This document shows, piece by piece, positions 1,745-16,564 of a stretch of DNA of 64,000 bases (position 1 is the first letter of the stretch; each line of letters starts with the position of its first letter). The notes under the pieces are model-generated. The model was not told the origin of the DNA and searched no databases. It worked only from the letters and a program-made list of their open reading frames with translations. The stretch covers positions 1,568,001-1,632,000 of the forward strand of contig CBDBEV010000001.1 of the NCBI GenBank assembly GCA_965204535.1, written 5' to 3'. The DNA comes from a bacterium (GTDB lineage: Bacteria; UBA8248). The translations under genes were made by a program, and so were the position numbers.

Positions 1745-2590
1745 CTACCTGCGCTTCGCGCCGAACGCGCCGACGTACGCCCCGGTGTCGAAGGCGCCCC
1801 AGGCCTCCTCGTGGCCGGGGCCGTGGAACCGCCCCTCGATGCGGTCGGCGCCGGCCGCGCCCTTGGCGAAGCGCCCGCCGGCCGGCTGCATGCCGGTCCA
1901 TTCGAGCGGCCCGCTGACGCCCTCGAGGTCGATCCCGACCTCGACGAGGGGCCTCGAGAGGTCGGCGACCCGCACCTCGGCGGTCCCGGGGAGGCGCTCG
2001 AAATCGGCGGTCCTGACCGCCTCGGCGATGCCCCGCCAGGCCGCGCTTCCGGTACCTGCGGGATTCGTCCCCGACGCCTCGCCGGCCGCCCAGGCGTGCG
2101 CCGTCATGAACCGGCCCCTCCAGAGTTCTCCGTCGGCCGCGACCGACAGCGCGCCCGCGCCGACTTCCACCGCCGCGTAGCCGTGCACGGCCCAGAAGCC
2201 GTAGCGGGTGAACGACGCATCAAAGACGGTCGCCGAGACCCCGGCGAAGACCTCCGTGAGCGGCGGCCCGCCGGTCGTGCCGCTCACCGTCGCGAACCCC
2301 TCCCGCATTCCTGCGCCCGAGAGCGTCCTCAGGTCGCTCGCCGCGCAGCCCGCCTCCGGGCAGGACAGCGGCACGGAGTCCTTCTCCTCGATCGGCCCCT
2401 CGCCCTCGCGGGTGAGCTCGTAGTCGAAGTACAGTTCCGAGACGAGCGGCGGGACAGAGCGCTGCGCTGCGCCGGGCGGTGGCGTCGTTACGGGCGGCGT
2501 CACAGTGCCGCCTCCGCCGTCCCCGCCGCCGCAGGCGGCAAGGGCCAGCGCGGCCGCGAGCGCCGCGGCGCGCAGAATCCAGGTCTTCAT
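1745..2590 (-). CDS. Surface lipoprotein with TbpB-like C-terminal beta-barrel
   Basis: MKTWILRAAALAAALALAA-CGGG lipobox; GSAAWRG...IEGRFHGPGHEEAWGAF...GAFGAKRR barrel motifs. Confidence 0.75.
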   Translation of the reverse strand: MKTWILRAAALAAALALAACGGGDGGGGTVTPPVTTPPPGAAQRSVPPLVSELYFDYELTREGEGPIEEKDSVPLSCPEAGCAASDLRTLSGAGMREGFATVSGTTGGPPLTEVFAGVSATVFDASFTRYGFWAVHGYAAVEVGAGALSVAADGELWRGRFMTAHAWAAGEASGTNPAGTGSAAWRGIAEAVRTADFERLPGTAEVRVADLSRPLVEVGIDLEGVSGPLEWTGMQPAGGRFAKGAAGADRIEGRFHGPGHEEAWGAFDTGAYVGAFGAKRR

Positions 2591-2645
2591 GAGAGTCGGT
2601 CTCCTTCCGTTCCGGCGGTCCGTTTGCCTGATCATGTCCGCCTCC

Positions 2646-5600
2646 TCAGAACCGCAGCCGCAGGTCGAGGCCGAGTTCGTACCCGGTTTCCGCCGCCGCG
2701 CTCTCGCGCCGCTCGCCCGCCAGTTCCACGCGCAGGTCCCCGCCCGGCACCTCGAAGCGGGTCCCGAGCCTGAGGCGCCGGCTTTCCCCGCCGGCCAGGT
2801 CGGCTTCCGCGAACGGCGTCAGCACCCCGCCCGCCTCGGGCAGCCAGAACCCGTAACCGACCCGCGCGTCGAGGGCCTCCTGTCCGGCGGCGGAGGGGGT
2901 CGGCATCTCCTCGGCCCACAGCGCATCCGCGCCGCCCGTCGCGGCGCCCCAGCGGGGCGCGAGCGCGAACCACAGGCCGCGCCCGTCCCCGGCGCCCGGA
3001 CCGACCCGCGCCGTCAGGCTCACCCCCTTCTCTTCCGCGCCATCCTCGCTGTGCGCCGCGAGCCAGCGCCCCCGCATCTCCACCGCAACACCCGTCGCGG
3101 CGTAGCGCACCCCGCCGGCCAGCTCGAACCCGCTGCCCTCGAGCCCGTCGCCGCCGTCGCGCCGCACCGCCGCCTCGAGGAACGGCTCGACCGACCACCC
3201 GCCCGCAAGCGCGAAGCGCCTCCTGGCCTCGATACCCGCCCGAAGACGCCAGCCCTCCGCGCTCAGGGCGTGGATCGCGTCCGGACCGGCATCGGTCTCC
3301 AGCCGCGTGACGCTCGCGTCCGCACGCACCGCCAGCGCCATGCCCGCCAGATCGGGAAGCGCACGCCTGACCCCCACCGACGCCATCCGCATCGTGAGGT
3401 CGCCCGTCTCCGCCTCCTCCCCTTCGGGCTCGTGGCGCGCCTCGCCCCAGCCCGCGCCCACCACGGCGCGCAACTCCAGGCCGTTCGCAAGCGTCCAGCG
3501 CCCGTAGGGATAGGCCGCCGTCAGCGTCGTCTCCAGGCGGCCCCGGCCGCCTGAGAGCCCGTAGTCCGCCTCGCCCTCGCCGTGCGACACCGCGAGCCCC
3601 GCCACCCAGGGACCGGCCCGCGCGTCCAGCCCCAGCCAGCCCGTGCGCAGTTTCCCGTCGTAGCGCAGCCCGGGCTCGCCCCGGCCCGCGAAACTCCCCC
3701 AGTCGCCACGGCCCCACACCGACCACAGCGGCCCCTCCGCCGCCCCCAGGAGCAGCGAGAAGGCGCTCGCGCGCAATAACTCCTCCGCTCCGATCTCACG
3801 GCCCGCCGCAACCGCCGCGCAGCCGGCCCCGAACCGTTCCGCCGCGCAGGGCCGCAGTTCCTGCGCAGCGGCAAAATCCGCCGCCGGCGCCGTCCCCGCG
3901 TCCAGCGTCACCGCCTGGCCGGCCAGCGTCAGCCCGCTCGCGCCGACATCCCCGAAACGCGCCCCGATGTTCTCCAGCGCGCTCGACATCGCCCGGCGCG
4001 CCGCCGCCGCGAGCGCGCGCCGCACCGCCTCCTTCACCCACGCACGGCGCGGGTCCGCCACCTCGATGGAGAAGGCGAGCGTGGCGGTGTCCCCGTCCGC
4101 GTCCGTAGCCGTCCAGGTGTATTCCGTCGCATCCCGCGCCCGCGACGGCGTGCCGGCCACCAGGCGCACGGCCGCGTCCAGCGTCAGCCCCGCCGGCGGG
4201 GCCGGCGTCAGGCGGTAGCGCAGCGTCCCGTCGCCGCCCGTCGCCCGAGGCAGCACGAGCGCCACCGCCGCGCCCGGCGTCCAGACCTGGTCCGCGACCG
4301 TGGCATCGCCGAAGCTCGGAGCGAGGACCGGTGCAACGCCTCCTCCTCCCCCGCCTGGGGACGTGCCGCCGGTGGGCGGGGTATCGCCGGTGGGCGGAGA
4401 ACCCTCGGTGGCCGGAGTGTCCGCGGTGGGCGGAGTGTCGCCCTCGTAGATCGTCACCTCCACCGAGGCCGGGCTGCCCGCGACCAGTCCCGCCGGCAGC
4501 GGCGTCCCCAGCGCCACCGTGAACCGCTCGTCGTCCCCGTCGTCGTCCGCCGTTGTCGATATGAACCCCGTTCGGCAGCACCTGCCGGCCGGGATCGTGA
4601 TCGACGCCAGCGTGCCGTGGTCGCCGGCTTCCGACGTGATTGCCCGTACCGTCAGCGGAATCGTCACGTCGGCAGCCAGCCCCGACGACAGCATCGCATT
4701 CACCGCCACGTCCGAACCCTCCGGCACGCGCCGGCTCACCTCGAGCCGCACCGTCTCGACGTGCGGCTCGTCGAGGTCCGTGATCCTGACCTCCACCGAG
4801 GACGGCGTGCCCGCCGCGTACCCCGCCGGCAGGCGCGCCGTGTCCAGCGCCACCGTGAACGTCTCGTCGTCCGTGTCGCTGTCCCGGTGCGTGGGGATGT
4901 TGACGAGGCCGGAGGAAACATTCTGTATGTCGGCCGCGACGTTGATGACGTACCGCCGCGTCCCGTCGGCGGGCGGCAGCGGGTCGTCCCGCTCCCCCCA
5001 GTCGGACGTCTCCGACGTGCCGTTGCGCACGATCACCGGGATCTTCACACCGCCCACCGTCCTGGTCGACACGTGCGCCCTCACCGCCACCGATTCGCCC
5101 TCCGCCACCGGGTTCGGCCTGACCCGCAGCCTGACCGTGGGGGTGTCCTGCGTGGGGGTGTCCTGCGCCTGCCGCGTTACGGTGACGGTGTAGTCCTTCG
5201 TGGTCCCGTCCTCCGCCGTCACCCGCACCGTGAAGACGTTGCCGGAGCCCACGGCCAGGGCGACGGCCCCGCTGGCCGTGCCGTCGGTCACCGCCGCCAG
5301 CGTCGTCCCCCGAAGGCCCACCTGCACCGTGGCCTTGCCCGTGTCATCCACCGTCGGCGTCAGCTTCACGTGGGTGATGCTGTTGGCCACCGTGGCCGTG
5401 TAGGATGTGGTGGCCTTGTCGAAGGCCGGCGACAGGGTGAACGGCGTGAACGTGCCCGAGGCGCTGTCGCTGCCGCCGGCCGTCAGGCCGCTCAGGTCGG
5501 CGTTGGAGGACTGGAGCGTCTGCGAGCAGGAGGTCCCGATGCTGAGCTGGACCGTGTCGCCGACGGACCAGCCCGCGTCGACGGACCAGAAGGTCTCATG

Positions 5601-6071
5601 GAAACTCGTGTCCGGGAGAGCGTAAGCGGTGGTGCCGACGCAGAACTTCAGATCCTGCGGGGGGGACGCTAGAGCTGGCTGGAGTCTTATTTCCAGTGAA
5701 TTCAGGCTCTGTTGAGAGTCGCGAACGTCCCAAACCCGTGTGAACGTATGGGTCGTGCCCCCGACCGTGAAGCTGGAGTTCGTCAACAGCGTATTGCACG
5801 AAACCGTGCTGCCCCCCGAAAGACTGTCACATCCCACGTCCTCGTCACCAAGGTCGCCGACCGTCAGCGTCGCCGACCACCACGTGGTAGCCTGCGCCGA
5901 GACGGGCGCGGCGGCGATCAGATGCAGACCGCACAGCAGCAGCGCAAGAACGGGTACGAGGAAGCAGAGGCAGGCGCGGCGGCGCCGGGGGGGCAGGTCA
6001 GGACGGCAGGCGCCTGCCGGAGTCGGAGAAGCCGATCGTTGCGCGCCGGCCCTTTGCCGGGCGCATTTCAT
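2646..6071 (-). CDS. Autotransporter-domain adhesin-like protein (cadherin-like beta-sandwich, Calx-beta-like and Ig-like passenger)
   Basis: Signal peptide ending VSA-Q; NADLSGL...VTAEDGTTKDYTVTVTR cadherin-like repeat; YTWTATDADGD Ig-like motif; WSVWGRG barrel start; terminal LDLRLRF. Start placed at ATG 6071 after GAAGAGGG. Confidence 0.85.
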   Translation of the reverse strand: MKCARQRAGAQRSASPTPAGACRPDLPPRRRRACLCFLVPVLALLLCGLHLIAAAPVSAQATTWWSATLTVGDLGDEDVGCDSLSGGSTVSCNTLLTNSSFTVGGTTHTFTRVWDVRDSQQSLNSLEIRLQPALASPPQDLKFCVGTTAYALPDTSFHETFWSVDAGWSVGDTVQLSIGTSCSQTLQSSNADLSGLTAGGSDSASGTFTPFTLSPAFDKATTSYTATVANSITHVKLTPTVDDTGKATVQVGLRGTTLAAVTDGTASGAVALAVGSGNVFTVRVTAEDGTTKDYTVTVTRQAQDTPTQDTPTVRLRVRPNPVAEGESVAVRAHVSTRTVGGVKIPVIVRNGTSETSDWGERDDPLPPADGTRRYVINVAADIQNVSSGLVNIPTHRDSDTDDETFTVALDTARLPAGYAAGTPSSVEVRITDLDEPHVETVRLEVSRRVPEGSDVAVNAMLSSGLAADVTIPLTVRAITSEAGDHGTLASITIPAGRCCRTGFISTTADDDGDDERFTVALGTPLPAGLVAGSPASVEVTIYEGDTPPTADTPATEGSPPTGDTPPTGGTSPGGGGGGVAPVLAPSFGDATVADQVWTPGAAVALVLPRATGGDGTLRYRLTPAPPAGLTLDAAVRLVAGTPSRARDATEYTWTATDADGDTATLAFSIEVADPRRAWVKEAVRRALAAAARRAMSSALENIGARFGDVGASGLTLAGQAVTLDAGTAPAADFAAAQELRPCAAERFGAGCAAVAAGREIGAEELLRASAFSLLLGAAEGPLWSVWGRGDWGSFAGRGEPGLRYDGKLRTGWLGLDARAGPWVAGLAVSHGEGEADYGLSGGRGRLETTLTAAYPYGRWTLANGLELRAVVGAGWGEARHEPEGEEAETGDLTMRMASVGVRRALPDLAGMALAVRADASVTRLETDAGPDAIHALSAEGWRLRAGIEARRRFALAGGWSVEPFLEAAVRRDGGDGLEGSGFELAGGVRYAATGVAVEMRGRWLAAHSEDGAEEKGVSLTARVGPGAGDGRGLWFALAPRWGAATGGADALWAEEMPTPSAAGQEALDARVGYGFWLPEAGGVLTPFAEADLAGGESRRLRLGTRFEVPGGDLRVELAGERRESAAAETGYELGLDLRLRF

Positions 6072-6288
6072 GCCGCCCTCTTCTTCTTCGGATGACGGAT
6101 GACGGATGACGGATGACGGATGACGGATGACGGATGACGGATGACGGATGACGGATGACGGATGACGGATGACGGATGACGGATGACGGATGACGGATGA
6201 CGGATGACGGATGACGGATGACGGATGACGGATGACGGACTGTAGCCGATGCCGCCGTCTCACGCAAGCTCTCTATACAGTTTTCCAT
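5998..6288 (-). CDS. Putative leader ORF spanning the heptamer tract
   Basis: ATG at 6288 preceded by GGGAGGG; reads through VIRHPSS repeats and overruns the autotransporter start out of frame. Confidence 0.4.
   Translation of the reverse strand: MENCIESLRETAASATVRHPSSVIRHPSSVIRHPSSVIRHPSSVIRHPSSVIRHPSSVIRHPSSVIRRRRGRHEMRPAKGRRATIGFSDSGRRLPS
6090..6236. repeat. Simple sequence repeat (GGATGAC)x21
   Basis: 21 perfect tandem heptamers counted directly. Confidence 0.97.
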
Positions 6289-6657
6289 CTTTCGAGTACC
6301 CTCCCTATCTCACTGACCCGGCAGGAACTCTATGCATGAAAACCATATTTTGTCTTGAACAATGAAAACAATTATAGCATATCCGCGACGGAATCAACAT
6401 TCTGAAATCGCGTCCGGAACGGGCGTTCAGGAATTCCCGCCTCTCACGCCCGTGTCAGCCGCCCCTCGACTGCCGCCGGACTTCCACCTGCTGCACGGAC
6501 ACCGGTTCGCCCGGCGCACACCCCATCGATTACCGGCCGGGTTGGGCGTCAAGTGCGGTGGGACCGATCGCGACGAGGGCTTTGTCTCCGTTGTCCGGGA
6601 CAGGCGCGGTCCGGTCGTCGAATCCAGGAGAATCAATCAGGCCGGCGCCGAAGCGGT

Positions 6658-7798
6658 TCACCGCTTCCCTCCGAACCCGGCGGCCAGGTCACGGCGTTCC
6701 AGCACGCCGGCCATCCCCTCGTGCCCGGGTCCGAAAAAAGCGCCCTTCACCTCACCGGCATCGCCGCCGGTCCGCATGAAGCCGTTTTCGCTCACGCGGA
6801 TCGAGTATTCGAGAGCGCCGTCGCCCCAGGTCGCGCCGGACCCGCTCACTCCCGGCGCCTCGCGAACGCCCCAGCGCTCCAGGCCGGTGAAGTCGAGACC
6901 TCCCTCGAGAGTCGCCAGATCGACCGCAAGGCGGGCGTCCCCGGCGACCGTTTCTCCCGATGGCCGCGAGATGCCCAGGAGCGCGCCGGTCCAGGTCGCG
7001 GCGCCCGTCAACGTCCGGTTGGCCGCCAGTTCGGTCGCCGGCGCCGGTCCCGAAGCCCAGGGCTGCGCCAGACCGTTTCTCAGGGAGACGCCGAAGGAAA
7101 CACCGGCGTCCGCGCCGGTGATCCCCAGATCCCCCCGGACGTGAAAGGACGCGTCCTCCCAGGGTCCGAGCCGCTCCGCGGTCATGTCTTCCGGCAAGGC
7201 GCCGGGCTCGAACCTGCCATAGGCCGCGAGCAGTGCGTCTCGATCCGCGAGGCCGAGGACGTGCGCGGGCGGGTTGGAGGGAGCGATGGGATTCAGCGTC
7301 GAGCGGGGGAAACGCTCCGGATCGGTATGGACATCGAACCCGAGGGAGTGCAGCAGTTCATGAACGACGACGTGGAGGACCGTCGCATCCGGCCAGGCCG
7401 CGTCGATAACCGATGTGTTGATCATTATGTGGCTCGATTGCGCACGGACATTTTCGTACCTCGTGTCACCTGCCCGGTAGAGTCGTCTCGGGAGCGCGAA
7501 ACCGAGAGGGTATGTGCCCGGGGCGAAGCGATAGGGCCATGACCGCCGCCTCCGCCTCGTCGGCCGCCATGACCGCCGCCTCCGCCGCATTCATCGCGGC
7601 CTCCCTCGCCGCTTCCAGCGCGCCCGGCGGCGCCCCGTTCATCGAGGCCTCCCTTGCCGGTTCCGGCGCGTCCGGCGGCGCCGCGGGAGCCCGGGGACCG
7701 CTGCCCCCGCCGCCGCAACCGGAAAGCAGAACCGCGATGGCCACCATTGTCATCGCGCACTTCATCGCAGCCCGCTTCGGACCTTTCCCGTCACGCAT
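6658..7798 (-). pseudogene. Frameshifted or internally deleted lipoprotein with zinc-metalloprotease-like motif and TbpB-like barrel
   Basis: Lipobox VLLSG-CGGG lies in one frame (ORF 7466..8158). HELLHSLGFDVH and the barrel ending GFGGKR lie in another frame (6658..7590). Break near 7530-7540. Confidence 0.65.
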
Positions 7799-7889
7799 GG
7801 TGACCCCCTCCATGTAAAGTCGTCGCAGGATTCCCCGGGCAATCGTACGCGGCACGGACACGGGCCAGGCGGAGAAGTCCCTCGCCGGA

Positions 7890-8140
7890 AGTTTTCCATG
7901 GGCGGCGCGAAACTTCACCGCTTGCCCGCGCATGCGATGCAGCGCAGGACCGCTTGTTGCTCCTCGCTCCTGAGCGCAACCGCCTTCACGCCGGGCTGCC
8001 GCACCGCCGTCCGGACCGCGCGCGCGTCGTGCGCATCGTTCCCGTTGCCACCCGTGAAGGGTCTGATCATCTTCGCCGCAGGAAGCCCGGCCTCGTTCCC
8101 CGGTTCCCGCAGCCGCCGCACGCCTCCATCGAGACCACGC
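7890..8140 (-). mobile_element. IS110-family transposase remnant
   Basis: RPFTGGNGNDAHDARAV...ALRSEEQQAVL, then ALHRMRGQAVKFR after a frameshift; matches the IS110 KPF..NKND..DA..I / KSEEQQA.L.LHR.R pattern. Confidence 0.7.
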
Positions 8141-8392
8141 GTGGCGTGCGATTGACAAAATACTCCAGGAACTCTAGTCCCTTCCCGGACTGGAATCAAG
8201 GGTTTTTCAACAGCCTCGCATGCGGCGGCCGACACTGCGAACGTTGCGGATCCAGGCCGGCCGGGTCGGGTCGCCGCCCAGCTTTCGGCGGTGGCGGAAT
8301 TGTGTTATTTTTTTCTTTTTTCGCCGAAATCGCTTGCCGTCCGAACGGCGGAAAGAAGAGAACACGAGCACCTGAAAAAGGAGGGCCCGAAC

Positions 8393-8479
8393 ATGCGACC
8401 CACTCCTGGAAAGAGCACGCCGGGGCTTGATCATCGGCTACAGTCCGTCATCCGTCATCCGAAGAAGAGGGCGGCATGA
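8393..8479 (+). CDS. Putative leader peptide MRPTPGKSTPGLDHRLQSVIRHPKKRAA
   Basis: AAGGAGGG RBS before ATG 8393; contains 2 GTCATCC units; TGA overlaps the next ATG (ATGA at 8476-8479). Confidence 0.5.
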   Translation: MRPTPGKSTPGLDHRLQSVIRHPKKRAA

Positions 8480-10461
8480 AGTGCGCCCGGCAAAGGGCCG
8501 GCGCGCAACGACCGGCTTCACCGACTCCGGCAGGCGCCTGCCGTCCTGGCCTGCGCCCCCGGTGCTTCCGCGCCCGCTTCTCCCTTCTTCCCGCCCTCGC
8601 GCTGCTGCTCGGCGTGCTCGTTTCACCTCACGCGGCAATGGCGGACGAGAAGGCAGAGAAGCCACGGGACACGCGGCACGAACAAACGGGCACGAACGGC
8701 GCTGACGACCTGATGGGCGGCGCCGGCGACGATTTGCTCGTCGGCAGGAGAGGCAACGACTACTTGCGCGGGAAGGGGGGCGACGACGAGTTGCGCGGCG
8801 GCCGGGGCAACGACCTGCTTCGGGGCGGTGCCGGCGACGACCTGCTGCGCGGCGGCCGCGGCAACGACGTGTTGCGCGGCGGCGTCGGCAACGACGTGCT
8901 GCACGGCGGGGACGGCGAGGACCGCTTCGCGTTCGCGACCGGGGCTTCGGGCCACAAGATCATCGCCGACTTCGAGGCCGGCGACGTGATCGCGCTGGGC
9001 GCGGACCCGGAGGGCGGCTCCTGGCCCGCGGTTGCCGACATCGTGGCCGGCGTGGCGGCGCGGGACGGCCGCTACACGTACACCCTGCGCCCCGGCCTGA
9101 CGGTGGAGACGGACACGCCGCTCGGGGCCGGGGATTTTATGTTCCTTGCCCACGCCGTGGCGCTGCCCGACCGCCATACCCTGGCCGGCTGGCTGACCGA
9201 CAATCCGGACGGGAGCATGACGGTGCCCGCGGGCGAACACCGCGACGGGGGCGGCGTGCGCTTTGCCTGCCCCGCGGACGGCGCCGACTGCAGGTTGACC
9301 GTGACGGCGGCGGGCGGGGCCGTGACCGTCTCCTCGACCGGCGGCGCGGCCACGGCGGGACCCGAGCCGGCGGCGAGCGCCAGGCTGGCCGGCAAGCCGC
9401 CGCCCCCGCCGCCTGCGCAAACGGCGCCCTCGACGCCGACGGGCGCCACGGCGCACGGGGTCGCCGGCGCCATCGTCAGCCTCGGGGACGATGCGCTCAC
9501 GGACCCCTTCGTCAGCTGGCCCGTCGCGGACCGTCCGCTCACGCTCGGGGTCCCGTACCACGTGCTGCCGCTCTCCCTGCACAAGCTGAGCAAGGGCATC
9601 CTCGGCGGAGAGCTCGACAACGACGACGACCCGTCCACCCCCACCGGCTTCGCCGCGGCGGACGCCCCTCCGGCGATCTCCGGATGGTCCGGCAGCGCCC
9701 GGGAGTGGCGCCGCACCGACGGGGCCGGCGTCACGACCGTCGACACCGTGACCCTCTACGCGAAGGCGGGCTCCGGGGAGACGTATCTCACCTTCGGGTG
9801 GTGGGCGCGGGTTCCCGATTCAGGCACAGCCGGCGCCGGGACGTTCGGGAACGACCCGACCCACCACAGCATCCACAAGACCAGGAGGAATCCCCTGTCG
9901 CTCAACGCCGCTTGGCCGCGCGGCGCCAACGCCTTCGCCGCGGGCCGGCACCATTACTGGCCCGGCTGGGCGCAGCTCGACGCCCTCGCCGGCACCGCGA
10001 CCTACGCCGGAGCCGCCGCCGGCCTGTACTCGGAGCGCGCGGCGGGCGCGCGCGACGGCGCCTCCGGCGCGTTCACGGCGGACGCCGCCCTGACGGCGGA
10101 TTTCGACGCGAAGTATGTCCGGCTCTCGGGCCGCATCACAGGCTTCCGGGACGCTTCGGGCGCCTCGCTCGGCGACTGGACGGCGAGGCTCGCCAACGAC
10201 ACCGGCGGCCTGACCGGGGGCGGTTTCAACGGTGGCGGTTTCGCGGTCAGCGGCAACACCGCCGGCGCCGCCGACGGGCGCGGCTGGAGCGGCGGATGGG
10301 TCGCCCAGTTCTTCCGCCGCTCGGCCGCGGATCCCCAGGCGGCGCATCCCGCCGCGGTGGGCGGGGCGTTCCAGGCGCACCACGGCACGCCTGCGATGGC
10401 GGCGTCGGACGATGCGGGCTTCGTCGGCGTGATCGGCGCCTTCGGGGCTGAGAAGCGGTAG
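8476..10461 (+). CDS. Secreted protein with RTX Ca-binding repeats and TbpB-like C-terminal barrel
   Basis: Signal peptide ending PHAAMA; tandem GGxGxDxLx nonapeptides; YLTFGWW, GTATYAGAAAGLY, GAFTADAALTADF; terminal GAFGAEKR. Confidence 0.8.
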   Translation: MKCARQRAGAQRPASPTPAGACRPGLRPRCFRARFSLLPALALLLGVLVSPHAAMADEKAEKPRDTRHEQTGTNGADDLMGGAGDDLLVGRRGNDYLRGKGGDDELRGGRGNDLLRGGAGDDLLRGGRGNDVLRGGVGNDVLHGGDGEDRFAFATGASGHKIIADFEAGDVIALGADPEGGSWPAVADIVAGVAARDGRYTYTLRPGLTVETDTPLGAGDFMFLAHAVALPDRHTLAGWLTDNPDGSMTVPAGEHRDGGGVRFACPADGADCRLTVTAAGGAVTVSSTGGAATAGPEPAASARLAGKPPPPPPAQTAPSTPTGATAHGVAGAIVSLGDDALTDPFVSWPVADRPLTLGVPYHVLPLSLHKLSKGILGGELDNDDDPSTPTGFAAADAPPAISGWSGSAREWRRTDGAGVTTVDTVTLYAKAGSGETYLTFGWWARVPDSGTAGAGTFGNDPTHHSIHKTRRNPLSLNAAWPRGANAFAAGRHHYWPGWAQLDALAGTATYAGAAAGLYSERAAGARDGASGAFTADAALTADFDAKYVRLSGRITGFRDASGASLGDWTARLANDTGGLTGGGFNGGGFAVSGNTAGAADGRGWSGGWVAQFFRRSAADPQAAHPAAVGGAFQAHHGTPAMAASDDAGFVGVIGAFGAEKR

Positions 10462-10711
10462 TGGCGCAAGCGTCCCGGCGATGAGGGCCGGAGTGGGCCC
10501 CGTTGCCGTTCGCCTTGCCGGGCGGGAACAGCGCATTGCCGTGCATCCCCCCCAGGAATATTGCGTTTCAGGTTGTGGAGGGGGAGGATGCGGTGCGCAA
10601 TCGTCAGCACCGATGCCCACGCCGAACCTGCCGAAGAGTGGGCCGCGATCGAATACTGCATTGAAAGCGGGCGGACAAGACTCTTGCAGCGACCGGGCAG
10701 GAGGGGTCGTT

Positions 10712-11330
10712 TCAGCGGTTGAGGACCTGCTTCCAGTTATTTCGCAGCGGCCTTGGCCAGACGTCCTTTCCGGGCTTGTCGTATTGTCTGTCCCTGTCGT
10801 AGCGCCTTCGTCCCCGTGTGGTTCCAACGTGAATCCATCCCGATGCCCTGTAGAAGGCGCCGGTGCAGCGCGGCGTCTCGACGAAGGTCTCGACGAGGAC
10901 GGGGATCGTGCCATAGCGCTCGGTCCAGTCTCCGGGCAGGCGCCTGCGGATGATGGCGAGGAGGTGGGAGCCGGGATTGGGGATCCTGATCCATGGCAGG
11001 ATGAGGAACCTCGGGTTGTCGACCACGAGGGGGAGGTCCTTCTCGCGCAACTGCGGCGTCCAGCCGATGAAGCCGTCGCGCGGGGCGAGTTTCCATGCGG
11101 CGCTGCTGCAGCCGGGCATGGCGAGGGGCCTGCCGCCGGGGTAGTGGTAGCGGGCGACGAACTCGTTCCACAGCCTGCCCTCGCGGGTTCCGCGCACGAC
11201 GACGCGCATATCGGGGGGCGGACCTCATCGAGGGTCCCGGGCGCCGGGATGAGGGGAGCTTCGGTGTCGGGTCCGGATACGAATCCGCCCGATATTCGCC
11301 ATACTTCTCCCGCCAGGGACCGCCCGGCGG
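10712..11330 (-). pseudogene. DUF4338/DruA-like IS-associated gene, degraded
   Basis: LWNEFVARYHY, AAWKLAPRDGFIGW, RFLILPW, PVLVETFVE...YRASGWIHVGTT motifs; internal segment and N-terminus appear missing. Confidence 0.7.
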
Positions 11331-11360
11331 ACGTGCCGGGCGAGCTCCTGGAGGAAACCG

Positions 11361-13016
11361 CTACTCCTCCTGCCGGTTCGCGCCGAACGCGCCGACCATG
11401 AGGCCATCATTCCCGTACGTCGAATGGAACACTCCGCCCACGACCTTCGGAACGCCGTCGTCGCCGTTGTCCATAAGATGACCGTTCCACCCGCCGTCGC
11501 CGGCGGCGGCCGTCCCGTCGATGGTCCACACCGTCTGCGCATACTCTGAACGGATGAAACTGATCGCTATGTCGCCTGTATTCGTGATGGAGGACTCCTT
11601 CAGCTCGACGGACCAGTTCCGCGCCCGGCCGTCCGCGCCCGTGAAGTCGTTTATGGCGCCCGAGATCATGTCGGTGTGGAAATCGGCCTCTAACGTCGCC
11701 GTCGCGGTGAAGCGGCCGGCGTCGTTCGTCCCCCCGGTGGGGCTCGAGAGAGCGTACAGGCCGGCGGCGCCGCCCCTGTACGTCGCCGTGCCGCGCAGGG
11801 CCGCGATGGTGGCCCCGGTGTCCGGGAGATCACGCTTCAGAAATAATGAGTACGCGGTATAGGTGTCGTCCGCGGACTTGTGGAGCCACCAGCCGTAGGA
11901 GGCATACTCCGTATCCGGCGAACTCATGACCCGGGCGTCCGGGTCCGCGGGCTTGAACGTCCAAACCGCATTGGCGGCGTCGAACGCGCCGGCGGCGGTG
12001 ACTCCGCCGAGATTGAAGCCCGGCCCGGCATGGCTGGCCGCGCACGTGCTTCCGTCAGCGGGATCGCAGCTGTACGTGCCCGGCACCCCGTGATAGCTGC
12101 CGGGGATCATCACGGCGACGTTGTTCTCGGGCAGCTTGAACCTCTTCAACCCCGCCGTATGGTCGAAGCTCGGGCTGGCAACCCGGCCGGCGGTGCCCTC
12201 GGTGGTCGTTTCGTCCAGCGTTCCGCCGGCGAAGCTGGCGCTGTACTGCGTCGAAAACTTCTCGCCCTCCTTCGGCTCCTCGACGTTCGAGTAGAAGACC
12301 GCCTCGTGTGTGCCACCACCTTCGGGCGCGGCCGTGTACCTCTTGCCTTCCCAGCCGTGGTTGGCGGCAACCATCGTCTGCTTGTCTTCCGACAGATAGT
12401 ATCTCGCAATTCCGAAATTCAGCGTTAAGCCGTCCGTTTCGAGGTCGGGATAGGTGCATCTTGGGTCAGATTCAAAGCAGGTTGATGGTGGAAGCAAAGG
12501 ATCATCGCCGAAGCCGTCGTACAGCTTCCTGGCGGTTTCGATCATGTCCGCCCTTGCCGCGTCGGCCGCCGCCTGCATCGCCGTCATGCGGGCCGTCCTG
12601 GCATTGTGGAAACGGGTCTCGAGCGCGGTGACGGTTCCGGTGTTCGCGGCCTTCTCCTCCGCCGGAACGCCGGCCGCCGCCGCTATCGCCGCCTTCGCCG
12701 CCGCGACCGCCGCCTCCGCGGCGCTCACCTCGGCGTCGGTGGAGTCGTCGTCCACCTCGCCTACCGCCGCCTGGGCGGCATCGAGCTTCATTTTGATGTC
12801 CGCGCGCTCCATGGCCAGGAGCTCCGCCGCCGTGACGCAAGCTCCGTCCATGTACCTGCCGCCACCGGCTTCACATGCCGCTTGCGGGTCCGGCATCTCG
12901 GCCGGCGTTTGCGCAGTGCCGCCGCCCCCGCCGCAGCCCGCCAGCGCAATCGTGAACGCCCCCGCCAGCGCGAAGGCGTAAAGCCTGTTTATCGGTTTCT
13001 CATATTTGAACGTCAT
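11361..13016 (-). CDS. Surface lipoprotein with Ala-rich stalk and TbpB-like barrel (paralog B)
   Basis: LAG-CGGG lipobox; YASYGWW, GTATYRGGAAGLY, MVGAFGANRQ. Confidence 0.8.
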   Translation of the reverse strand: MTFKYEKPINRLYAFALAGAFTIALAGCGGGGGTAQTPAEMPDPQAACEAGGGRYMDGACVTAAELLAMERADIKMKLDAAQAAVGEVDDDSTDAEVSAAEAAVAAAKAAIAAAAGVPAEEKAANTGTVTALETRFHNARTARMTAMQAAADAARADMIETARKLYDGFGDDPLLPPSTCFESDPRCTYPDLETDGLTLNFGIARYYLSEDKQTMVAANHGWEGKRYTAAPEGGGTHEAVFYSNVEEPKEGEKFSTQYSASFAGGTLDETTTEGTAGRVASPSFDHTAGLKRFKLPENNVAVMIPGSYHGVPGTYSCDPADGSTCAASHAGPGFNLGGVTAAGAFDAANAVWTFKPADPDARVMSSPDTEYASYGWWLHKSADDTYTAYSLFLKRDLPDTGATIAALRGTATYRGGAAGLYALSSPTGGTNDAGRFTATATLEADFHTDMISGAINDFTGADGRARNWSVELKESSITNTGDIAISFIRSEYAQTVWTIDGTAAAGDGGWNGHLMDNGDDGVPKVVGGVFHSTYGNDGLMVGAFGANRQEE

Positions 13017-13138
13017 TAAGCGAGTCTCCTGAATACATGGAAAGGAACTTGACCTGGCCAATTCGATTGGAGAAGGGCCGACACCCCTCAAAGGGCTGCT
13101 TTAAGGGGGTTGAAAAACCCCTGAAGATGGGAATTGCT

Positions 13139-13303
13139 GCGACACGATCCCCGAGGTGCAGGCCGAGTCGGGGTGTCGGCTACGTTCATGAAACGCGAAG
13201 TGGGGGCCGCCCGTTGTTCCCCCTCCCGGCTCGAGGACTCAAACTCACAACCGGGAGCGGTACAGTTTGCTCTCACGAGGGAAGCAACCAACGGGCAACC
13301 CCC
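13139..13303 (-). promoter_or_regulatory. Candidate structured RNA leader between the paralogous lipoprotein genes
   Basis: Nested stems GGGGGUUGCCCGUUG/CAACGGGCGGCCCCC and CUCCCGGUU/AGCCGGGAG, whose G-U pairs work only on the minus strand; second hairpin at 13139-13178. Confidence 0.4.
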
Positions 13304-13384
13304 TTTTTCGCTCTCCTCATATCGCCTTGGGCCCCGCCGGGGCGGTGAAGCCCCGGAAGCCTGAAGGCGTCGTGCTCTTCGCTG

Positions 13385-15007
13385 CTACTGCTTGTTCACG
13401 CCGAAGGCGCCGACCATCCGGCCGGACGTGCTGTACGTCGAATGGAACGTGCCGGTCCCGACCTTCGCAACGCCGTCGTCGCCGTTGTCATAGAGAGCTC
13501 CGGACCACGCGCCGGCGGCGGCCGCGGCCGTCCCGTCGATCGTCCAGACCGTCTCGTTTCCGGCAGCGGCGGCAGTACCGTCACTACTGATTGCCCCGTC
13601 ATCGCCGACGGTGGACTTCTTCAACTCGACGGACCAGTTCCGCGACTGACCATCCGCGCCCATGAACTGGTCGATCGTGCCCGTGATCATGTCGGCATTG
13701 AAATCGGCTTCGAGCGTCGCCCGCGCGGTGAAGTGGCCGGCGTCGTTCGTTCCCCCGGTGGAACTGTAGAGAGCGTACTTGCCGGCGGCGCCGCCCATGT
13801 AGGTCGCCGTTCCACGCAGGGCCGTGATGCCGCTGGCGGGCGGGACGGTACCCCTGGCCGTCGCGAAAGCGCTCGCGGTGAAGGTCTCGCCGTCCTCGGA
13901 CTTGTGGATCCACCAGCCGTAGGAGACATACACCGTGTCCGCCACATCCGAGACCATGGCCGTCGGGCTGGTGGGCTTGAACGTCCAGGTCCCGCCGGCG
14001 AGGGTGAAGCCGCTTGTGGCTACGGTAGCGGAGCACGTGTTTCGATCAGCAGCAGCATCTGTAGGGGTGCAACTGTAAGTGCCGGACACCCCGTGATAGC
14101 TGCCAGGGATCATCACGGCGACGTTGTTCGCCGGCAAATCGAAGGTCTTGGTTCCTGCGGACTGGTCGAAGCTCGGGCTGGCAACGCGGCCCGTAACATA
14201 GCCAGTGAGGGCAGTGATATCCCCTGTTTCGCCGTCGGTGAGTGTGTACGCTTCATTGAACGGGTCGCCCTCCGTCGCGTCGCCGACGTTCGAGTAGACA
14301 TACGCCTCGTACGTGCCGGCATCGCCCGTGGGCTCGGCCGTGTGCCTCTTGCCCTCCCAGCCGTGGTTGGCGGCGACCGTCGTATCCTTGTCTACCGCCA
14401 GTGGGACGGTTGCGGCCGTGCCGATCGTCACGCTGATGACGCCGGCGGCGTCACTTGCGCCGGTTCGGACGTTGTCGGTATCGCCAAGGCCGTGCTCGAG
14501 GCCCTTGTATAGCTTACTGGCCGTCGCCATCATGGCCGCATCCGCGGCCTTCTGCTCATCGTCCATGGCGGCCATGCGGGCCATCTTGGCGGCGGCAAGC
14601 TGGGTTTCCAGCGCGGTGACCGTTCCGGTGTTCGCGGTTTTCTCTTCGTCCGGAATATTGGCCGCGGCCGCTATCGCCGCCTTCGCCGCCGCTATCGCCG
14701 CATCGGCCGCGCTCACCTCGGCGTCGGTGGAGTCGTCGTCAACCTCGTTGACCGCGGTGGTTGCCGCCATGATGGCCGTGCTGATGGCCGAGCGCTGCTC
14801 TGCCGCGAGATCCGCGGCCGAGGTGCAAGTGCCGTCCGCATTGTACCGACCCCCCTCATCCTCGCACGCCATTTGCGGGTCAGGCATATCGGTCGGCGTT
14901 TGCGTAGTGCTGCCGCCCCCGCCGCCGCAGCCGGCCAGCGCGACGGCGAACACGGCCGCCAGCGCGAAAGCGTAAAGCTTGTTTATCGGTTTCTCTTTGA
15001 ACATCAT
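13385..15007 (-). CDS. Surface lipoprotein with Ala-rich stalk and TbpB-like barrel (paralog A)
   Basis: LAG-CGGG lipobox; many blocks near-identical to 11361..13016; ends MVGAFGVNKQ. Confidence 0.8.
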   Translation of the reverse strand: MMFKEKPINKLYAFALAAVFAVALAGCGGGGGSTTQTPTDMPDPQMACEDEGGRYNADGTCTSAADLAAEQRSAISTAIMAATTAVNEVDDDSTDAEVSAADAAIAAAKAAIAAAANIPDEEKTANTGTVTALETQLAAAKMARMAAMDDEQKAADAAMMATASKLYKGLEHGLGDTDNVRTGASDAAGVISVTIGTAATVPLAVDKDTTVAANHGWEGKRHTAEPTGDAGTYEAYVYSNVGDATEGDPFNEAYTLTDGETGDITALTGYVTGRVASPSFDQSAGTKTFDLPANNVAVMIPGSYHGVSGTYSCTPTDAAADRNTCSATVATSGFTLAGGTWTFKPTSPTAMVSDVADTVYVSYGWWIHKSEDGETFTASAFATARGTVPPASGITALRGTATYMGGAAGKYALYSSTGGTNDAGHFTARATLEADFNADMITGTIDQFMGADGQSRNWSVELKKSTVGDDGAISSDGTAAAAGNETVWTIDGTAAAAAGAWSGALYDNGDDGVAKVGTGTFHSTYSTSGRMVGAFGVNKQ

Positions 15008-15263
15008 TTAGTGAGTCCTCCTGAATACACAGTAGAAAAAGGGATTTTCCGTGAATTTCCGGCTTTCTCCGATTAACCTCCTTTCGTCAGCTTTTTTTCG
15101 GGCCTTCACAAACTGGTGATTCGTACTTTCGGCCGCCTGAAATACGGCGGACTTGAACCCTTTCATGATCCGGGCCGGTGGTTCGGCGAGACACATGTTC
15201 CTGCGGCATGCGCCCACCGTTCCCGGCCTCCAGAGGCGAGCCGCCTGCCACCCGGCCTGCCCG

Positions 15264-15451
15264 CCGATAATCGTTATTATCAGATGTGAGAAGCCCCGTT
15301 TTCCGCCGGGAGAGGCGTTTCGGGGCGCATCCGGGCCGTAAATGAGCGGGAAAAGACGCAAAACGGCGCCCGAAACCACTCCGGGGACCCCGGAATTGCG
15401 CTTGACATGGCCTTGAGAGGTGTTATATTTTCTGATAATAACGATTATCGG
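15264..15451. promoter_or_regulatory. Putative invertible promoter 1 (21-bp perfect inverted repeats around a 146-bp segment)
   Basis: CCGATAATCGTTATTATCAGA at 15264-15284 and its exact reverse complement at 15431-15451; TTGACA(15402)-N16-TATATT(15424) with TG extension, pointing +. Confidence 0.85.
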
Positions 15452-15529
15452 ATGTTAATTGTTGTAAAGATGTGGTAAAAAAACCGTTTCCGGCGGGCGA
15501 TTCTTCGTCGTCCGCCTTATATATGTTGC

Positions 15530-16564
15530 ATGGAATCGGGACGGCAACTCCACGAACGTGAATCGCCGCCGGAACTTCAGGGCGCCGGCCGAACGACAGA
15601 TCACGGAGAACCATGGGCGAAACCCGCGGCGCCGGGGAGACGCTCCCCCCTGGAAAAACCCGACGAGAGTCACTCACCGCACCTCGGTTCGTTCCGGGCG
15701 TCGGCTGATCTGGTGCGCGCCTCGATCGCCGGGAACACGCGCCGCGCCTACGAGGCGGCGCTGCGCGGTTTCGAGGAATCGGGGTGCCCCGAGACCGACG
15801 CCGGGGTGGCGGCCTACCTCACGGGGCTCTACGGGAAGGGCCGCTCGGCGGCCTGCGCCTCGATGGCGGTCGCGGCGCTTCGGTTCCGGGCGAGGCTGGG
15901 CGGCCGCTCCTCCCCGGTGGGTCCTTCGGCGCTGCGCGCCCTGGCGGGCTTCAGGCGTCTGGGTTCGGAGCGGGGCCGCGGCCCGGTGGACGGGGTGCGC
16001 TGGGAGGAGGCGGACCTCGCGGCGGCGCTGGCCGAGGGGACGGGGACCCTGGGGGGCCTGCGCGACGCGGCGGTCGTGGCAGTGGCGAGCGACGCCCTGC
16101 TCCGGGTGTCGGAGGTCGCGGCTCTGGACGTCGCCGACGTGAACCTCGGGGAGCAGACGGTGCGGATCCGCCGCTCGAAGACGGACCAGGAGGGTGTGGG
16201 CGTCGTACAGTACCTCGGAGAACCGACCGTGGCGCGCGTCGGGGCCTGGCTGGCGCGCGCGGGTATCGGGGAGGGAGCGCTCTTCCGGGGCCTGTACAAG
16301 GGGGGACGGCTTCGGCCCGGGCGCCTGACGGACAGGAGCATCCGGAGCATCATCGCGCGGTGGGGGAAGGCCGCGGGCGCCGAGGGGCGCGTGAGCGGCC
16401 ACAGCCTCCGGGTGGGGGGCGCGCAGAGCCTGGCCACGGCGGGGGCGTCGCTGGTCGAGATGCAACTCGCCGGGCGCTGGCAGTCGCCGGCCATGCCGGG
16501 ACGCTACGCGCAGGGACAGATCGCGAAACAGGGCGCCGTGGCGAGGCTGCGATACGGCCTGTGA
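15530..16564 (+). CDS. Cre-like tyrosine recombinase 1
   Basis: NTRRAY N-domain; catalytic LLRVSE (R), SKTDQ (K), HSLR, GRW, RYA (Y); start codon uncertain. Confidence 0.92.
   Translation: MESGRQLHERESPPELQGAGRTTDHGEPWAKPAAPGRRSPLEKPDESHSPHLGSFRASADLVRASIAGNTRRAYEAALRGFEESGCPETDAGVAAYLTGLYGKGRSAACASMAVAALRFRARLGGRSSPVGPSALRALAGFRRLGSERGRGPVDGVRWEEADLAAALAEGTGTLGGLRDAAVVAVASDALLRVSEVAALDVADVNLGEQTVRIRRSKTDQEGVGVVQYLGEPTVARVGAWLARAGIGEGALFRGLYKGGRLRPGRLTDRSIRSIIARWGKAAGAEGRVSGHSLRVGGAQSLATAGASLVEMQLAGRWQSPAMPGRYAQGQIAKQGAVARLRYGL

Follow-up and report, generated by a model that had tools for sequence, protein, structure and literature searches.

A (GTCATCC)21 tract near the 5′ end of an autotransporter gene as a candidate site of slipped-strand phase variation in an uncultured bacterium

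The window analysed here is a 64,000-nucleotide stretch of DNA (G000:C2:1568001-1632000, G000 being its 4.56-Mb genome). Its minus strand carries a long autotransporter open reading frame, preceded by a heptamer repeat tract that lies between two candidate start codons, ATG 6288 upstream and ATG 6071 downstream (Table 1). The encoded protein combines a signal peptide, a C-terminal beta-domain (residues 785-976) and a passenger between them that includes a cadherin-like region (residues 212-301). Searches against Pfam gave 45.4 bits for Autotransporter (PF03797, cut-off 26) and a Cadherin-like match also above its cut-off, while NCBIfam TIGR01414 reached 15 bits, just under its cut-off of 16. 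The PF03797 score agrees with the original prediction, which had taken the gene for an autotransporter. In an Atlas search the 1141-aa protein matched autotransporter clusters at 0.96, and the passenger region used as query returned no usable match. Most paralogues fall short of PF03797 but align to the focal beta-domain with E-values under 1e-24. The hydrophobic core of the signal peptide sits downstream of both ATGs; its cleavage site was placed by eye.

The lipoprotein-like gene that follows is probably co-transcribed with the autotransporter gene, and its product matched no Pfam or NCBIfam family above cut-off. A further lipoprotein-like gene, upstream of the autotransporter (6658-7798, minus strand), is interrupted by a frameshift near 7470: the frame with the signal peptide stops at 7466 and a 310-aa C-terminal frame runs on, the latter with a weak, below-cut-off match to Slam-dependent lipoproteins. 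More broadly, positions 1745-16564 form an island of secreted and lipoprotein genes, with MxxxLAxCGGGG signals at 2635, 13091 and 15007, which adjoins a tyrosine recombinase (15530-16564) and a DruA-like fragment (10712-11209).

Table 1 Features of the autotransporter locus and of a sister cassette in the window.
Feature	Position	Strand	Basis or value
Extended -10-like site TGCTATAAT, candidate promoter ~75 nt upstream of ATG 6288	6371..6379	-	seen in sequence
Shine-Dalgarno-like GGGAGGG	6299..6305	-	duplex with the genome's own 16S 3′ tail, -11.4 kcal/mol
Upstream ATG and first 52 nt of coding sequence, putative true 5′ end of the gene	6237..6288	-	peptide ends ...ASATVRHP
Perfect (GTCATCC)21 heptamer tract	6090..6236	-	sequence inspection, TRF, frame arithmetic
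Purine run GAAGAAGAAGAGGG and internal ATG(A) at 6071, possible restart site	6068..6089	-	sequence
TGA at the end of the 96-aa ORF read out of frame at n = 21	5998..6000	-	
Hydrophobic core of signal peptide, then ...PVSA-Q	5931..5975	-	Kyte-Doolittle mean 2.9 over 15 aa
Autotransporter ORF from internal ATG, 1141 aa, C-terminal Phe	2646..6071	-	
Lipoprotein-like gene, starting 10 nt past the autotransporter stop	1745..2635	-	ORF list
Sister cassette: Shine-Dalgarno, ATG 8393, (GTCATCC)2 at 8447-8460, 28-aa ORF stopping on ATGA 8476-8479	8377..8479	+	
Intact 661-aa gene in ATGA state, near-identical signal peptide, calcium-binding nonapeptide repeats	8476..10461	+	86.6% over 172 bp

The tract was found by direct inspection and by TRF (6089-6239, period 7, 21.6 copies, 100% matches): a long perfect repeat, 7 nt taken 21 times, with a unit length that is not divisible by three. 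The word GTCATCCGTCATCC matched the window 21 times against 0.06 expected, 20 times within the tract and once at 8447. That the tract is free of stops is unremarkable, because 69% of all heptamers can be repeated on one strand without a stop, a share of 78% after weighting for 60% GC. With 217 nt from ATG 6288 to ATG 6071, the assembled 21 units yield an upstream ORF of 96 aa that overruns 6071 out of frame and ends at 5998. With 19 or 22 units this ORF would end on an ATGA at the internal start, and with 20 or 23 it would fuse in frame with the autotransporter ORF. The outcome thus depends on n mod 3: fusion in frame at 2, a stop on ATGA at 1 and overrun at 0. The original prediction had described the tract, ATG 6288 after GGGAGGG, the internal ATG 6071, their spacing and this dependence on n, all of which proved accurate.

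Of 2083 background internal ATGs, 1.9% have a Shine-Dalgarno energy at least as strong as that of the upstream start, and 22% one at least as strong as that of the internal start (-6.6 kcal/mol). The upstream Shine-Dalgarno lies about 10 nt from ATG 6288, a spacing that counts against the upstream start, and in a fold of the whole transcript accessibility was 0.32 at both ATGs, a result that does not separate them. A scan for promoters and terminators found none, with 0 consensus promoter sites in 5900-6750, and thus did not confirm the candidate promoter.

Genome comparison places the tract in a recurring cassette, composed of a strong Shine-Dalgarno, an ATG, the repeat and GAAGA..GGCATGA, of which there are 12 copies in G000 (n = 1, 1, 1, 1, 1, 2, 2, 2, 11, 12, 20 and 21) and five in the congener G002. 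A genome-wide search of G000 identified seven GTCATCC tracts with two or more units. Among the long simple repeats of this genome that passed thresholds, 12 in total, six are heptamers (four GTCATCC, two AGCCGAG) and six are G or C runs; each of the six long perfect heptamer tracts is found at the 5′ end of an autotransporter-family gene. Six of the 11 beta-domain genes of G000 carry such tracts, and their C-termini match the focal beta-domain. At least three GTCATCC units were found in G000 only among 51 genomes of the phylum, the congener having short cassettes. The cassette scan of genome_contigs returned two loci, both in G002. The one cassette match in metagenome_contigs (L028) was dropped as intergenic with unrelated flanks; L029 and L033 were dropped as short-pattern matches inside another gene.

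Two near-twin genes in a duplicated island are 93% identical in protein and 99.3% identical over 3.6 kb of upstream flank and carry 12 and 20 units, respectively, and tract length therefore changes far faster than its surroundings. The variation in repeat number with conserved flanks is one among paralogues (12 versus 20; n = 1-21) and not among alleles of the focal gene, of which no second was seen. Together with the placement of all six long heptamer tracts at the 5′ ends of this family, this variation among paralogues supports the original view of the tract as a contingency locus. If these tracts do act as switches, the genome would represent an uncultured lineage with a combinatorial switchboard in the style of pathogens, made of long 5′ heptamer tracts in six of 11 autotransporter-family genes.

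The reading frame of the upstream start was then compared across the 17 tabulated cassettes, 12 of which head a long ORF for a secreted protein (those of G002 run to the edge of the fetched DNA). Four of the 12 have long tracts, in frame at n = 11 and 20 and overrunning at n = 12 and 21. The other eight carry one or two units; seven of them have an in-frame upstream start and the eighth is in the ATGA state. The non-repeat spacer of these eight comes in about six lengths between 53 and 76 nt (including 53, 62, 67, 73 and 76), and its remainder shifts with n such that the sum stays a multiple of three, i.e. by compensating indels. The nominal probability of seven in eight is 0.003, which overstates the case since paralogues share history. 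The other five cassettes have no long ORF in the frame of the internal site and stand outside this count: C2:314140 and G002 L031 are in frame over 74 and 69 aa, C2:1453693 is in the ATGA state with a degenerate downstream frame, and C2:481721 and C2:478486 are remnants ahead of small genes with their own Shine-Dalgarno. The focal leader peptide, moreover, runs into the tract as ...ASATVRHP, sharing the frame used by the in-frame paralogues.

The internal ATG, on the other hand, is dispensable in several relatives. It is replaced by ACG in two G002 copies, and in seven further G002 genes and one G000 gene the homologous site is an out-of-frame GTG, with an upstream ATG heading the ORF. A protein from another assembly (P0003) reads five VIRHPSS units in frame with no Met between the tract, put at about 17 units from the peptide, and the signal core. 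In the cassette table, Shine-Dalgarno energies range from -8.1 to -17.4 kcal/mol upstream and from -2.9 to -7.2 kcal/mol internally, the upstream values being inflated by the choice of the strongest-SD start in a 35-nt window. Gene callers nevertheless favour the internal site in a number of cases: the focal protein (P0001) is started at 6071, and the same Met is the called N-terminus in 13 of 52 homologues. In nine more homologues it is an in-frame internal Met. A tract of this kind behind the main start would explain why gene callers choose the wrong Met in such genes. The internal ATG is probably an old, real and ancestral start, judging by its distribution. A DNA pattern for the MxCAR start matched eight times in 51 genomes, never in the autotransporter family, with similar counts for controls. 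The focal out-of-frame peptide HEMRPAKG (window 6071-5998) resembles the in-frame REVRPAG of the G002 loci L011, L016, L059, L066 and L070, a likeness that suggests that the signal n-region is read in different frames in different paralogues.

Other repeat units occupy the same position. An AGCCGAG tract with n = 16 is in frame with an upstream ATG and leads, from the tract end, into a 2938-aa ORF of the same gene family. This tract and a second one of eight units (G000:C2:26224-26335 and C2:559142-559197, both minus strand) precede near-identical signal peptides. In the gene with eight units the signal frame holds two stops after the tract, so that no repeat number alone would join it to an upstream start. 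GCCGA tracts lie at the same place in P0039 and at four G013 loci, all four of the latter (two of them near-duplicates) being in frame with an upstream ATG; relatives would thus have reached the same design with a pentamer. These G013 tracts, (GCCGA)11-21 at related beta-domain genes with the ATG 144 nt upstream (L102-L105; G013:C4 12809, 46714, 197818 and 3507067), each stand directly behind TTGACA...CATAAT, and could be translational switches or promoter-proximal tracts.

The in-frame bias and the dispensable internal start make ATG 6288 as start, with n = 21 as an out-of-frame allele, the simplest reading of the locus. We consider it probable that this is ordinary in-gene slipped-strand phase variation, with ATG 6288 as the main start and the assembled n = 21 allele predicted to be off. 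Comparative evidence, seven of eight short and two of four long tracts in frame and an internal start that can be lost, would place the tract inside the coding sequence after the start. What had been described as a leader ORF is likely the 5′ end of the autotransporter gene itself, headed by ATG 6288. The original prediction had proposed that repeat number acts through translational coupling and not through a frameshift in the structural gene. As the main mechanism this was not supported: the upstream start is in frame in seven of eight short-tract copies and has the stronger Shine-Dalgarno, the upstream peptide shares its frame with the N-termini of in-frame paralogues, and several homologues lack the internal start or have it out of frame. 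The switch most likely works by shifting the frame of translation within the structural gene, with no separate leader gene as controller.

In this mechanism, slipped-strand mispairing would add or drop heptamer units and change n. At n = 2 mod 3, ATG 6288 would be in frame and the autotransporter on. With 20 units a long signal peptide of about 17 + 47 + 6 + 59 residues would lead the autotransporter to Sec; a signal peptide of some 130 aa with VIRHPSS repeats is presumed to pass Sec, and its cleavage would yield the same mature adhesin-like protein, the repeat peptide leaving with it. At any other n a short junk peptide would be made and the autotransporter would be off or nearly off, a state that may perhaps also lower expression of the lipoprotein gene 10 nt downstream. 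Translation would begin at 6288, and switching in a population should be reversible.

The locus most likely belongs to the known type of translational phase variation by simple sequence repeats that includes autA/autB, lav and neuO; the likenesses that follow refer to the available portions of the papers cited. In autB, AAGC repeats lie in the signal-sequence DNA just past the start codon (PMC5118866), and lav is on at 21 GCAA units and off at 22 and 23 (PMC9022572). As in Neisseria autA/autB and Haemophilus lav, the tract here would stand just after the start, in the signal-sequence coding region of an autotransporter, with one length in three in frame and off alleles common. Unlike in those genes, the unit is 7 and not 4 nt, the n-region is very long and would gain up to about 50 residues from the tract, every paralogue in the family has a tract of its own, and a second ATG with an ATGA overlap follows the repeat. 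The organism is moreover uncultured, and the likeness is one of layout. Closer in unit is neuO of E. coli K1, where an AAGACTC heptamer in the 5′ coding region sets the frame by n mod 3 over lengths of 3-53 with a mode of 20 (PMC13001214). The focal tract shares with it the heptanucleotide unit, the putative position in 5′ coding sequence, the dependence on n mod 3 and similar lengths; neuO, however, encodes a capsule O-acetyltransferase, whereas here the product is an autotransporter predicted to shed the repeat peptide when its signal peptide is cleaved. Ahead of the tract of H. influenzae lic2A there are alternative starts in two frames (PMC3116884). The present locus resembles lic2A in having more than one start codon around the tract, so that more than one permissive state is possible, but its second start is on the downstream side of the tract and could be used only by re-initiation. 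A literature search for symbionts or uncultured genomes with such switches gave none relevant by title.

It is unlikely, though the locus is laid out for it, that the switch has three states, in which n = 2 mod 3 is on by fusion, n = 1 mod 3 is substantially on by restart at 6071 from the ATGA, and n = 0 mod 3 is off. The geometry is exact, and the restart product would keep the hydrophobic core and a complete, shorter signal peptide. The ATGA is retained at all four long-tract loci and in 10 of 12 long-ORF cassettes, and the homologous Met is followed by T, S, K, R, M or N in 22 of 22 homologues, all compatible with ATG-A, compared with 25% A after ordinary internal ATGs. On the other side, the ATG-A could be inherited from an ancestral start, and A-rich second codons are common at real starts. 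A local fold predicts a hairpin on the scale of 17 bp after the internal ATG (-24.9 kcal/mol for a 60-nt window), which would hinder fresh initiation. The sister cassette at 8393-8479 is furthermore a natural ATGA allele before an intact 661-aa gene; if that gene is expressed, the internal ATG works there. Its paralogue at C2:462767, 70% identical in the C-terminal half, is in frame.

Against restart as a state equal to fusion stands its rarity: with equal function, indels would be expected to reach the ATGA state just as frequently, yet it occurs in none of four long and one of eight short tracts. The internal site is lost or out of frame in the two and eight genes named above and in P0003, and three of the four G013 genes with a pentamer tract lack an in-frame ATG ahead of the signal core. 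In lav, as far as the available text of PMC9022572 goes, both out-of-frame lengths gave no protein. With the ATGA state in one of 12 long-ORF cassettes and two of 17 overall, the conserved state is fusion, and the pair does not qualify as a conserved coupled pair by the co-location of upstream stop and downstream start set out in the accessible part of PMC3711429. The literature covered, with subscription papers mostly outside that coverage, held no case of phase variation through translational coupling or re-initiation. A graded version, a slipped-strand cassette set before an older start, with the fused form on, the ATGA-coupled form at another level and the overrun form off, in parallel in four autotransporter genes, is similarly doubtful. 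Should the ATGA state give output, two of three repeat lengths would express protein and the usual one-in-three rule for scoring phase state would change, a small but real new variant.

We regard it as very unlikely that ATG 6071 is the main start and that the tract acts in effect as a 5′-UTR, tuning transcript structure or stability gradually while the upstream frame is incidental. The called start at 6071 and the 13 of 52 homologues called at the same Met fit such an arrangement, as does the close spacing of the AGCCGAG and GCCGA tracts behind a CATAAT hexamer. It also has a precedent in H. influenzae hmw1A/hmw2A, where, in the available portions of PMC12721329 and PMC2651432, a heptamer in the 5′-UTR is a rheostat that works via a hairpin and RNase III. 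The focal tract is like hmw1A/hmw2A in its 7-nt unit, its similar copy number and its place before an adhesin gene. However, the evidence here puts the tract in a reading frame, with a strong Shine-Dalgarno and ATG upstream of it, and the predicted fold contains no long complementary arm for the tract. A reading of the tract as one arm of a hairpin was discarded, there being no adjacent reverse-complement tract. A gradual 5′-UTR effect can explain neither the in-frame genes that have no internal start nor the in-frame bias in seven of eight cassettes across indels, and at three of the four long-tract loci the internal Shine-Dalgarno amounts to only -2.9 to -3.2 kcal/mol.

It is barely credible that the length of the tract reflects an assembly error or neutral growth of the repeat, with the gene on in life or decaying: a single metagenome assembly with 5.3% contamination, long GTCATCC tracts in one of 51 phylum genomes searched and the frameshifted neighbouring lipoprotein gene speak for it, but the 1141-aa ORF is intact, all six long heptamer tracts of a 4.56-Mb genome fall at the 5′ ends of one family and in six of 11 beta-domain genes, and in other genomes tracts of other units have expanded independently at this position. 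The contigs of the four sequencing runs on record, none listed as RNA, were compared with the upstream flank and part of the tract, and no piece spans the tract. The depth of tract words was 800-850 against 805 expected in X1 (possibly the source sample, and so not independent) and 3886 against 2691 expected in X2, a depth that is no copy number and at most a weak hint of other lengths, given no weight here.

Two observations concern the wider history of the cassette. About 38 kb occur twice in G000 at 99.3-99.9% identity except in the autotransporter genes (C1:183067-221523 versus C2:2956119-2970891 plus C2:1-34752), either as a duplicated island or as two strain versions in the assembly. Cassette remnants (G000:C2:478486, 481721 and 314140; L031) precede unrelated small secreted-protein genes or no long ORF, and one such remnant is conserved in G002; the cassette seems to have been shuffled between genes.
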